Positions 11,367 through 15,036 of a stretch of DNA of 64,000 nt are shown piece after piece. The position numbers and the translations under genes are program-made. The stretch spans positions 2,294,001 to 2,358,000 of the forward strand of contig CM030332.1 of NCBI GenBank assembly GCA_017654855.1. Direction: 5' to 3'. This DNA comes from Podospora anserina (Eukaryota). Each line of letters starts with the position of its first letter. Position 1 is the stretch's first letter. The notes beneath the pieces are model-generated. The model was given only the letters and a program-made list of their open reading frames with translations. It was not told the DNA's origin and ran no database searches.

Positions 11367-12801
11367 GAAGTGGTCATGGGGGCATCTCATCAATTCATAC
11401 CTGCTACTATATGCATTGGGAGAGACGACATGTGCGTGATGTTTGGGTTTGTCCATGACCACACGAGAGGCTAGAATAGTCAGTTTACATTAGGTATATG
11501 CAACTTACGGATGATGCATGATATAAAGAAAATAAATAGTACCTTGGCCCAAACTACCGCATCATCTCTGATATCAAGACATCCGCAACTGCCGGGAAGA
11601 AGTGTGCCCAGGGAAGTCTGAGTCGCGCTGACACAGTAGTAGATATGCTCGACTGAAACGTGTTTGATGCCAAGCACATGAAACCAAAGTACTCCAGTCT
11701 GGAATGGGCAATCATAACCGAGAAGAGTAAAGAGCTACCAGAAAGACGTTTCGTGATATGTTCGTGGTGTTCCATGGATGGAGAGCTCTTGCGTGCCAAG
11801 CATCACGGACAGGGAGCTTAAGCACGGTTCAACTCCGCAACTTGCAGCGTGCACGGATCCCAGAGTGTCCTCGACCCGTTTGGCTGCATGTGATCCCCTG
11901 CGAAAAAAAAAGTTCCATCATTGTTCCTTCAGAAACGTTACGTCGATGCGGATACGATGTTCTGGTGGCTGGTGGTTCAACTGACAACTGTCATCGGGGT
12001 TTAGTATTTACAAGGCTGCTTTGTCTCGGAAACCCAGCGATTGAAGCAACCCGATTTGTCAGAGGGCAATCTGCAGCCAAAACGCGAGGGCGAGGGCCGT
12101 GAATAATGTCTTACAGCACTTCCGTCAGCCCTTATTCAGCAATGCTAAGGTCAATCTAGAGTGGGGCAGTCCTGGTGTTGAGGGGCAGTTTTGAGAGGGG
12201 CAAGGCCTGGGCGACCAACACAGCTAGCTGAACATCAGCTACGGGCGTGTGGGATACCACTATTTTGCACTCCAGGGTGTCCTAGACGTTGAGTATCCTA
12301 TATTTGGTAATGGATCAATAACTTGTGCAGAGACCGGATGCGGACAATGCTAAGCATGGCATTCGCGATATCGGTTTTGGAAGCATTTCGAACGTGTTGA
12401 CAGGCCCGTCGGGAGGGGGAGCCGGACCAATTTCGGTGCTACACCGACGCCTCTTGGGCGTTGCGTTACTAGACATCGAACCCCTCCGTCGGTCGCCAGC
12501 AATCGTTGATCCAGGGTTGATTATCCGATCATGACGAATGCCGACAAATGCAGATGAGGTACCCGCAACACGGGGGTCTAACCTGAGACCTTCTTTGACG
12601 CGGGATCTTCCCTGGTCAGTACCCCATCCCTTCCCGCTGTCATTTTGACAAGTATGTATATATAGACTTGACTTCCTCCCTCTTCTTTGCCTATCCAGCT
12701 TGTTATCATTCCCAACATCCAGTTGATACCCACGCCTTGATCTTTCCAAGCACCACTTGATACCCATTAGCGTCATATATATACCCACATAACCAGTCAA
12801 C

Positions 12802-13471
12802 ATGGCTCCCAAGATCGCAATTGTTTACTACTCGATGTACGGCCACATCAAGCAGTTGGCTGAGGCTGAGAAAGCCGGTATCGAGAAGGCTGGCGGCACT
12901 GCCGATCTCTACCAGTAAGTTGTCTGCCCTTCAGATCATGAGACATGCTAACAGTGAAACACCTAGGGTCCCCGAGACTCTTTCTGACGAGGTCCTCGCC
13001 AAGATGTACGCTCCTCCTAAGGCCACAGATGTCCCCGTCCTCGAAGACCCAAGCGTGCTCGAGCAATATGACGCCTTCCTCATCGGCATCCCAACAAGAT
13101 ACGGCAACTTCCCCGCTCAATGGAAGGCTTTCTGGGACAAGACCGGCAAGCAATGGAGCTCCGGTGGTTTCTGGGGCAAGTACGCCGGTGTCTTCATCTC
13201 CACTGCCTCTCAGGGAGGTGGCCAGGAGTCCACTGCTCTCGCCGCCATGAGCACCTTCGCCCACCACGGCATCATCTACGTGCCCCTCGGATACGCCAAG
13301 GCCTTCGGCATCTTGACCAACCTGGATGCGGTCCGCGGTGGTAGTGCCTGGGGAGCGGGTACTTTCGCTGGTGGTGACGGTTCTCGCCAGCCTAGTGATG
13401 TGGAGAAAGAGCTGGCCACCATCCAGGGCGAGGAGTTTTACAAGACGGTCGCCAAGGCTTTCAGTGCGTGA
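12802..13471 (+). CDS. PST2: Flavodoxin-like NAD(P)H:quinone oxidoreductase (WrbA/Pst2/Ycp4 family), short isoform
   Basis: [15 protein letters not shown], intron 12915-12966, [40 protein letters not shown]; stop TGA 13469-13471. Confidence 0.92.
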
Positions 13472-13535
13472 AATCACCATCGTGAGTGTTTGTGTGGGAG
13501 AAGTGGGACGGCATGTGGCTAATAGGTGGTGAAAG

Positions 13536-13723
13536 GGGGTTCATCGGGGGGAGAGTCAGTTCCTGCACCGGCTGTCGTTGAGACTCCAGCTCCAGCAGCT
13601 GCCAGTGCCCCTGCAGCTGGGGAAAGGCAAACGAGGGCCGAGCCAGTGCCAGAGCACAAGGAGGAGGATAAGGAGGAGGAAGGAGGACCATGCGGATTGC
13701 CATCCAAATGCGTCATTCTATGA
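13536..13723 (+). CDS. Predicted alternative terminal exon of the quinone reductase gene: Ala/Pro/Glu-rich linker ending in a CaaX box (..GPCGLPSKCVIL*)
   Basis: Phase-1 intron 13464-13535 (GTGCGT..GCTAAT..AAG) removes the TGA and joins in frame to an ORF ending CVIL-stop. Confidence 0.75.
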
Positions 13724-14232
13724 TTTCTGCAAATAGCGTGACAATATTGTTTTTTTCCCAGCGAATACACATATGGATATCAAACACACCACACCTGTCG
13801 ACCACCTCCAATCCCTTGGCCAACCTTGGACCTGCAACCCTGCATAAGGTATGTGAACAGGCAGGACGTAGCACAACATTTCATCCATTAGGCACCCATC
13901 CAGACCATTTCATCGAGATTTCTTTCTTGCATTCTCGGATGAACCTTTCACTCCAAATTCCAACCGCCTCAACTCAATTACAAAGCAATTGACTCACTTG
14001 TGAGAGGGTTAGGGTTATGCATGTAACAAATACATCCTCCACCTGCATCAATTTATTTTAGCTTTTTTGTTTGCCTTCAAGCCGGCTCGCTTTCAACATT
14101 CACTTTGAACTCAAAATTTTCCCCCTTTCCAACTTTTTCCCAACCTTTTCCCAACCTTGAATCCCCCAATCCCATCCCCGTTTTCATCAACCACCCATCT
14201 CACTCATCCTCTCCAACATCAAAAATCTTACC

Positions 14233-15036
14233 ATGCTCCTCCGCCATCCCTCCCTCCACCCCGACGAAACAAGAGCATCAACCGCCAACAACCAAGACAT
14301 CTTCCCCAGCATGTCCTCTCACCCAGCCCCCAGCCCACACCAAGACCAAGACGACACCGAGCCCGAAAACGGTCAGTTCGACGACGTCTGGGGCGACGAT
14401 GAAGACAATGACTTTATCCCCTCTTCCACCACCACCGTCTCATCCTCCTCAGAAAGAGAACGTGACATCAACCGCCTCAAAACCCTCCACTCCAAAACCG
14501 GCTACATCGACGGCATCACCCACGCCAAATCCACCTCCGTCCAAGCCGGCTTCGACGAGGGGTTCACCCTCGGAGCCAACATCGGCTCTCGGGCCGGGAT
14601 CCTCCTAGGCATCATCGAAGGCTTCGTGGCTGCTTTTGGGCTGCAGTCTATTTCCACTTCTCCACCTCAGCCATGGGAAACCGCAGAGTGGGGGCGGTTA
14701 GAGGTCCTTCTCAACGAAGCCAGGCGAGAGCTTGACGTGAGAAGTGTTTTTGCCAAGGACTGGTTTTGTGAGGACGGGACGTGGAACTACCCCGTTGGTG
14801 ACGAGGAAAGCGGCGGGGAGGTGCTCTTCCCGGATGTGGCGGCTTCTCACCCTCTGATCAAAAAGTGGGATGCGATTGTCAGGCGGGAAGGGGAGAGATT
14901 TGGACTTGATTGGAATGTTTTGAGAGATGAGGAGGGTGTTGAGAGGGGACATGAGTACGATCAGGAAGAGGAGAACAGCAGACAAGGGAACCAGCCTGCT
15001 GCAGCAAAGACTGGAAATCAGGCTCTTGCCTGGTAA
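14233..15036 (+). CDS. YAE1: Yae1-family protein (cytosolic Fe-S assembly adaptor)
   Basis: HSKTGYIDGITHAKSTSVQAGFDEGFTLG..G..AG.LLG repeated Gly pattern of the Yae1 N-terminal domain; exact start uncertain. Confidence 0.82.
   Translation: MLLRHPSLHPDETRASTANNQDIFPSMSSHPAPSPHQDQDDTEPENGQFDDVWGDDEDNDFIPSSTTTVSSSSERERDINRLKTLHSKTGYIDGITHAKSTSVQAGFDEGFTLGANIGSRAGILLGIIEGFVAAFGLQSISTSPPQPWETAEWGRLEVLLNEARRELDVRSVFAKDWFCEDGTWNYPVGDEESGGEVLFPDVAASHPLIKKWDAIVRREGERFGLDWNVLRDEEGVERGHEYDQEEENSRQGNQPAAAKTGNQALAW

Follow-up and report, generated by a model that had tools for sequence, protein, structure and literature searches.

A conserved exon encoding a CaaX box behind the stop-containing last intron of the Podospora anserina quinone reductase gene Pa_1_6390

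The gene PODANS_1_6390 (Pa_1_6390) of Podospora anserina lies in a stretch of 64,000 nucleotides (nt) from contig CM030332.1 of GenBank assembly GCA_017654855.1 (positions 2,294,001 to 2,358,000, forward strand); this whole stretch is called the window below, and all coordinates refer to it. The product of Pa_1_6390 is, by its sequence, a WrbA-type FMN-dependent NAD(P)H:quinone oxidoreductase (type IV), also known as a fungal flavodoxin-like protein, with the activity predicted. The gene has three exons rather than two, and the last exon, absent from the reference model, extends the enzyme by a long tail with a CaaX box at its end. With this tail the product becomes a Ycp4-type enzyme with a predicted lipid anchor, a form missing from the P. 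anserina model. That exon 3 is real and used in this lineage is very probable. The novelty in P. anserina lies in this unannotated exon; the enzyme class is a known one, and so is the lipidated long form, which many relatives already have in their annotation. We further propose, tentatively and with a probability of about 0.3, that the last intron of this gene in Sordariomycetes is a conserved and deliberately inefficient one. It would mostly be retained, giving a soluble enzyme, while splicing of a controlled fraction would produce a prenylated, membrane-tethered enzyme whose role would be to maintain membrane quinones in the reduced state. The roles of Pst2/Rfs1 and of Ycp4, separate genes in yeasts, would then fall to one gene, with the ratio set by stress or developmental stage.

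Structure of the gene and its last intron

The reference annotation of Pa_1_6390 is a short form of 205 amino acids, which stops at TGA 13469-13471. Exon 2, when translated, is 100% identical to the database protein P0005 (205 amino acids), and exon 1 joined to exon 2 gives exactly this protein. The original prediction for this locus described an open reading frame (ORF) for the flavodoxin domain ending in ..AKAFSA-TGA, with a splice donor (GTGCGT, 13464) just before the stop, a branch motif (GCTAAT, 13518-13523) and an acceptor (AAG, 13533-13535). All of these are present. The sequence also agrees with its claim that removal of this 72-nt phase-1 intron leads from ..AKAF-R into an open tail with a CaaX box and a second, upstream Cys. 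Excision of 13464-13535 creates an AGG (Arg) codon after ..AKAF, from which the frame stays open as far as ..GGPCGLPSKCVIL; this adds 62 residues and gives a product of 265 amino acids. Exon 3 itself codes for 61 residues, namely an Ala/Pro/Glu-rich linker plus the lipidation box; the CaaX Cys is residue 262 of the long form and the second Cys is residue 256. The last intron is placed at the boundary between domain and tail, which is the point where the long and short forms of the relatives diverge. The coordinates are collected in Table 1.

Table 1. Features of Pa_1_6390 in window coordinates
Feature	Position	Strand	Basis and remarks
Transcription start	12711	+	StringTie transcripts of PMC9801653 Table S1, mapped to the window; 5' untranslated region (UTR) of 91 nt before the ATG
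Exon 1, coding part	12802..12914	+	Starts with ATG 12802; ends with the first two bases of a Gln codon
Intron 1, 52 nt	12915..12966	+	GTAAGT, GCTAAC, TAG (full consensus); needed for the annotated 205-residue protein
Exon 2, remainder of the WrbA-type FMN quinone-reductase domain	12967..13463	+	Matches to Pfam FMN_red, TIGR01755 and the Pst2 structure
Last intron, 72 nt, phase 1	13464..13535	+	Donor GTGCGT 13464-13469, branch GCTAAT 13518-13523, acceptor AAG 13533-13535
TGA ending the 205-residue short form (..AKAFSA) if the last intron is kept	13469..13471	+	Stop of the reference model
Exon 3, coding part, absent from the reference model	13536..13723	+	Stop codon 13721-13723; homologous tails in 30 relatives
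Terminal box E-G-G-P-C-G-L-P-S-K-C-V-I-L	13679..13720	+	Invariant columns in the alignment of long forms
Published transcript 3' ends 13755, 13791, 13811	13755..13811	+	PMC9801653 Table S1; all 3' of the tail stop codon

The splice consensus is GTRNGT for the donor, CTRAY for the branch and YAG for the acceptor. Intron 1 fits it exactly and has an in-frame TAA within its donor (CA/GTAAGT gives TAA), whereas the donor, branch and acceptor of the last intron (GTGCGT, CTAAT, AAG) are each one step off. Every GT donor between 13380 and 13471 was paired with every downstream AG. Among these donors, GTGCGT at 13464 is the only consensus-like one that retains the last helix of the domain, and no AG at a usable distance past the branch motif comes before the AAG ending at 13535. 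GAG 13553 and CAG 13559 are additional acceptors that keep the frame. Two other donors were considered. The strong-looking GTGAGT at 13482 was rejected, being 3' of the stop and not rescuing the frame, and GTGAAA at 13468 would need acceptors at 13605 or beyond to enter the CaaX frame, and no branch motif was seen there. Stop-codon read-through cannot produce the tail either. Exon 2 and the tail share a reading frame, but TGA 13469, TAA 13520-13522 and TAG 13523-13525 lie in frame between them, two of the three (13520 and 13523) beyond the annotated stop, and this excludes read-through.

Three transcripts are listed for Pa_1_6390 in Table S1 of Lelandais et al. 2022 (PMC9801653), each with a 5'UTR of 91 nt and with 3'UTRs of 286, 322 and 342 nt past the annotated stop. 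Mapped to the window, they end at about 13755, 13791 and 13811, or 32-88 nt past the stop codon of the tail. Therefore the mRNA includes all of exon 3, the tables being silent on the splicing state of 13464-13535. None of these three published transcripts shows any sign of polyadenylation within the last intron. At the other end of the gene, a TATATATA run is present at 12654-12670 (+ strand), which places it some 45 nt 5' of the published start of transcription.

Conservation of the C-terminal tail

Two database searches, with the tail included in one of the two query profiles, returned 179 relatives of the protein. Those from the search without the tail fall in two size classes, a short one of about 204-205 amino acids and a long one of 241-266. 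The long relatives share one terminal box, seen as ..KEGPCGLPAKCVIL in Podospora australis and, in Fusarium, as ..KEGPCGLPAKCVVQ. According to the original prediction, the tail would be due to chance if there were no spliced junction reads and relatives had no conserved CaaX exon. Such an exon is in fact conserved: the box K-E-G-P-C-G-L-P-x-K-C-a-a-X (pattern C..P.KC followed by three residues) ends 30 of the 179 relatives. By their source names, the box-bearing relatives come from four orders of Sordariomycetes: Sordariales, Hypocreales (Fusarium, Neonectria), Glomerellales (Colletotrichum) and Xylariales. All 14 long forms that were aligned have the residues K, G, C, G, L, P, K and C unchanged, with a variable linker in front of them, and the P. 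anserina tail also keeps all eight. The box ahead of the CaaX Cys (K-E-G-P-C-G-L-P-x-K; 13679-13708, + strand) is conserved far beyond the needs of a prenylation signal, and this excess conservation of GPCGLPxKC calls for an explanation.

A terminal L in a CaaX box favours geranylgeranyltransferase I. Among the 30 relatives the CaaX ends are CVVQ (17), CVIL (6), CTVQ (3) and CVIM, CEIM, CLIQ and CVVL (1 each), so that the CaaX box is conserved while the residue choosing between the farnesyl and the geranylgeranyl enzyme varies. The CaaL signal for geranylgeranylation that had been read from the tail is thus appropriate for P. anserina itself (CVIL) but is not a conserved property, since 17 of the 30 relatives have CVVQ and others end in M or Q.

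Tails of this general kind extend beyond the Sordariomycetes box. A profile search over 1.84 billion representatives clustered at 50% identity listed 150 proteins, 149 of them new. Fifteen of the 149 have cysteine-rich ends on long Ala/Lys/Ser-rich tails, mostly CaaX ends with a second Cys adjacent or 2-3 residues off; one of the 15 has the Sordariomycete box. Lipid-anchor tails are therefore widespread in the enzyme family, in agreement with what is published on Ycp4. The 61-residue tail used alone as a query, being too short and of low complexity, had no match among 2,010 longer candidates, and the tails were located via full-length relatives.

Several paralogues of the enzyme occur in Fusarium, with at least two long types whose boxes are KEGPCGLPAKCVVQ (KEGPCGLPAKC) and GGACGLPTKCVVQ (GGACGLPTKC). 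The Fusarium relatives concerned are P0052/P0061 versus P0152/P0163, plus P0048 and P0068, and there are short forms with clearly different domain sequences. Each Sordariales species appears once only among the relatives listed.

Enzyme family and predicted fold

The protein matches the NCBIfam models TIGR01755 (196.7 bits, cut-off 132.5) and NF002999 (200.5 bits, cut-off 141), both over residues 4-201, as well as Pfam FMN_red. The closest solved structure is that of yeast Pst2 (5mp4, E-value 4.7e-75, residues 3-201), and WrbA structures also match. An AlphaFold model of the long form of P. australis, a 90%-identical relative, is of modest quality (mean predicted local distance difference test score, pLDDT, only 64; built from 14 sequences). 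In it, strands and helices alternate over residues 1-202, and residues 206-259 have pLDDT below 50 and are without secondary structure. The tail, described earlier as a flexible linker, is thus modelled as unstructured in this relative.

Also among the relatives are double-length proteins of 414-454 amino acids (P0125, P0127-P0129, P0136-P0140 and others), composed of two tandem flavodoxin-like domains. Some of them are named Symbiodinium and one comes from the mushroom Gymnopilus.

Indirect evidence for two possible products

Four observations are consistent with the possibility that both forms of the enzyme are made. First, in Podospora aff. communis there are two proteins, P0041 (205 amino acids, ..AKAFGA) and P0054 (250 amino acids, ..AKAFG-GIANG..CVIL, encoded on a contig of 1,058 nt), which are identical over 204 of 204 aligned residues. 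One gene thus appears to have yielded both forms in this species. Second, on contigs of at most 1.5 kilobases (kb), the relatives returned include 33 clusters of complete short proteins (203-208 amino acids) and only one long protein, P0054. All 33 short clusters begin at Met1 and cross the exon 1/2 junction; therefore intron 1 is absent from these contigs while the stop of the last intron is present. The tail-including profile search alone gives 25 short versus 1 long on such contigs, though close long forms should outrank short ones. Third, the codons of the tail differ from those of the body. At four-fold sites, C makes up 42 of 86 in exons 1-2 versus 5 of 33 in the tail (Fisher p = 7e-4), and A makes up 8 of 86 versus 13 of 33 (p = 3e-4). 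The GC content of third codon positions (GC3) is 0.72 in exon 2 versus 0.46 in the tail, and even the conserved last 14 codons include GGA three times, CCA twice, and TTG, AAA, ATT and CTA. Such a bias would be expected if the tail is translated less frequently than the rest of the protein. Fourth, each of the three splice signals of the last intron is weaker than its counterpart in intron 1.

A separate class of relatives, 193-194 amino acids long (P0006, P0010 and 23 more), begins at Met12 (MYGHI..), crosses the exon 1/2 junction and ends in ..GA. Its members are mostly on contigs of 1.4-790 kb, with one on an 853-nt contig, and they look like ORF calls on genomes with another 5' intron layout.

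Proposed mechanism and alternative explanations

Pa_1_6390 is best explained as the Sordariomycete Ycp4-type member of the fungal flavodoxin-like quinone oxidoreductases. When the last intron is spliced, the product would be the 265-residue enzyme with a disordered linker of about 60 residues and the GPCGLPxKC-a-a-X end. Its CaaX Cys262 may be prenylated (CVIL suggests geranylgeranyl) and Cys256 is possibly acylated; either lipid would tether the enzyme to a membrane. When the last intron is kept, translation would end 5 nt into the intron and yield the 205-residue soluble enzyme. This retained form would have no downstream exon junction and an ordinary 3'UTR, and would presumably escape decay and be translated. 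Both mRNAs should be stable and translatable because the retained intron is the last one and the 3'UTR stays at about 300 nt. What is observed is the gene anatomy, the family, the conservation of the exon and its coverage by transcripts; we infer that the last intron is spliced in P. anserina itself, that the two proteins coexist, and that the long one is lipidated and located at a membrane. It seems somewhat probable that both proteins are produced in appreciable quantity and that the short form prevails. Regulation of the ratio between them, the toggle envisaged in the original prediction, is doubtful, and the sources consulted gave no evidence of regulated splicing.

Several points weigh against the production of two isoforms, and the first concerns the stop itself. 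A stop conserved within the intron of the relatives had been named among the features to look for. Of the short forms, 92 are full-length; the C-terminus is ..G in 41 of these and ..GA in 40 (81 of 92), and it is after one or other of these two endings that the long models of relatives run on. Judged from the protein ends alone, these endings may reflect reading into a GT(A/G)AGT-type donor in phase 2. On the simplest reading, the junction in relatives would be G/GTGC/GTGAGT or GG/GTAAGT, with TGA or TAA being part of the donor consensus, as with the TAA of intron 1 in Pa_1_6390, and in many relatives the early stop in the intron probably follows from the splice donor itself. Because a GT(A/G)AGT donor in phase 2 creates a stop automatically, a stop after the donor is no proof of selection for a short product. 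A conserved stop of this kind in the relatives is something that the donor consensus alone can give, which makes it weak evidence. In P. anserina, the TGA occupies positions +6 to +8 of the last intron and is not forced by the donor.

Other points of this kind bear on the contigs, codons, gene models and transcripts. The contigs of at most 1.5 kb appear to be assembled transcripts, judging from their size and the absent intron 1, and unspliced pre-mRNA can also end up in assembled contigs. The poorer codons have a second possible reading, since disordered regions under little constraint tend to show less codon bias, and they are counted over a tail of just 61 codons. In annotated genomes, the presence of a short or a long gene model may reflect the choice of the gene finder. 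How arbitrary such choices can be is seen at the next gene downstream, which encodes a Yae1-like protein (14233-15033, + strand; Pfam Yae1_N, E-value 3.4e-10). In four relatives (P0148, P0149, P0150 and P0169; 403-446 amino acids) a single gene model joins the quinone reductase to this neighbour and skips or garbles the CaaX exon. These fusions appear to be modelling errors, and they show a conserved gene order. In P. anserina, Pa_1_6390 is not among the 2,350 alternatively spliced genes of Table S2 of PMC9801653, in which retention was scored for annotated introns only. That study could not have detected the last intron because it tested retention only for annotated introns and the last intron sits in the annotated 3'UTR; it reports 344 P. 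anserina genes with 3'UTR introns. Finally, the database, searched at 91-293 amino acids, contains the 205-residue P. anserina protein only, and not the 265-residue one, which would have ranked first. The original prediction that both isoforms are made is therefore favoured by the P0041/P0054 pair, by the 33 short clusters versus 1 long, and by the poorer codons of the tail, all of them indirect, and disfavoured by the absence of the long P. anserina protein from this database.

The best surviving alternative, possible although on the unlikely side, is that Pa_1_6390 is an ordinary Ycp4-type gene with constitutive splicing, whose 205-residue form is a gene-model error copied by homology, supplemented by assembled unspliced pre-mRNA. 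In many relatives only the long form is annotated, and the stop of 81 of the 92 short forms (..G or ..GA) is what a GT(A/G)AGT donor in phase 2 gives without selection. The P. anserina reference pipeline, as described in PMC2441463, built exons from conservation with N. crassa ORFs, and a variable tail of low complexity is easily missed in this way. However, constitutive splicing would predict mostly long proteins on the short contigs free of intron 1, where 33 short clusters stand against 1 long. It also does not account for non-optimal codons even within the conserved last 14, or for three splice signals that are all weaker than those of intron 1.

It is also conceivable, but improbable, that the tail exon is a decaying relic in P. 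anserina, where splicing would be too weak, only the short soluble enzyme would be made, and the frame would persist for now. Certain features of this species could be read as decay: Ser (AGT) at the junction versus Gly in relatives, GTGAAA as the overlapping second donor, and AAG as the acceptor. The tail without GC3 bias (0.46 vs 0.72 in exon 2) and the lack of a long P. anserina protein in the database searched would fit as well. Nevertheless, the 62-codon frame has remained open and matches the phase of a donor, branch and acceptor that could all work, the box has kept its eight invariant residues, and the transcripts end just past the tail stop codon and not before it. The last alternative, that the downstream frame and its CaaX end are a chance feature of the 3'UTR, could appeal to the low-complexity composition and to the tail-only database search without matches, but it is refuted by the same terminal box in 30 relatives from several orders.

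Significance and comparison with known systems

The reference model of a well-used model fungus is without a conserved coding exon, and the same locus is modelled as short, long or fused across dozens of fungal genomes. To our knowledge, there are few well-supported cases in which fungal alternative splicing gives two useful proteins. If true, a conserved retained intron that sets the choice between a soluble and a membrane-anchored antioxidant enzyme would be a clean and easily tested fungal example. In the literature searched, we found no description of alternative splicing of a flavodoxin-like or Ycp4 gene, nor of a stop-containing intron choosing between a soluble and an anchored form. By analogy, such a choice would follow known isoform logic.

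The yeast flavodoxin-like enzymes are described as residing at plasma-membrane eisosomes, where their regeneration of ubiquinol guards against lipid peroxidation (bioRxiv 10.1101/2023.04.27.538084). According to a review (PMC10055536), YCP4 of Magnaporthe oryzae, matched here by gene name only, is needed for growth, stress responses and pathogenicity. The comparison with yeast Ycp4 made at the outset is an apt one, as long lipidated C-termini are documented for Ycp4 of both S. cerevisiae and C. albicans (PMC7943015, PMC4556627). S. cerevisiae Ycp4 has 49 extra C-terminal residues (PMC7943015) and is reported to be palmitoylated (PMC7943015, bioRxiv 10.1101/2023.04.27.538084); in C. albicans Ycp4, the extension is about 90 residues with a CAAX box at its end (PMC4556627). 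In its architecture Pa_1_6390 resembles Ycp4, with the same enzyme domain followed by a long C-terminal extension that has a terminal cysteine lipidation signal. Unlike in Ycp4, the extension is on a separate exon behind a stop-containing intron. In addition, the second Cys of the Sordariomycete box GPCGLPxKC-a-a-X is six residues upstream of the CaaX Cys, whereas it is adjacent or 2-3 residues off in most other family representatives (CC-a-a-X type). The 205-residue short form is a complete WrbA-type domain and in this respect resembles Pst2, Rfs1 and bacterial WrbA. However, these short enzymes are separate genes in yeasts, while the short form of Pa_1_6390 would share its gene with the long form.

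A similar arrangement exists in fungal peroxisomal dual targeting. Freitag and colleagues reportedly found in 2012 that fungal glycolytic enzymes gain a C-terminal peroxisomal signal by alternative splicing or stop-codon read-through. There too, an optional C-terminal signal set at the RNA level divides one enzyme between two places, but the signal of Pa_1_6390 would be a prenylation box, known here from sequence, rather than a type 1 peroxisomal targeting signal (PTS1). The idea that one spliced gene covers two yeast paralogues has a precedent in SKI7/HBS1, described as one alternatively spliced gene in many fungi and as two duplicates in S. cerevisiae (PMC3597508, PMC7491326). The proteins differ, and Fusarium has several short and long paralogues of the quinone reductase. 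In animals, lamin A/C, OAS1 p46 and ZAP-L are cases in which an alternative 3' end changes the prenylation box. The same is true of animal Cdc42, in which alternative last exons are reported to alter the lipid-anchor motif (PMC4870516). In these cases, as proposed for Pa_1_6390, an alternative 3' end determines the presence of the prenylation box. The animal genes use alternative terminal exons or poly(A) sites, whereas Pa_1_6390 would use plain retention of a short fungal intron.

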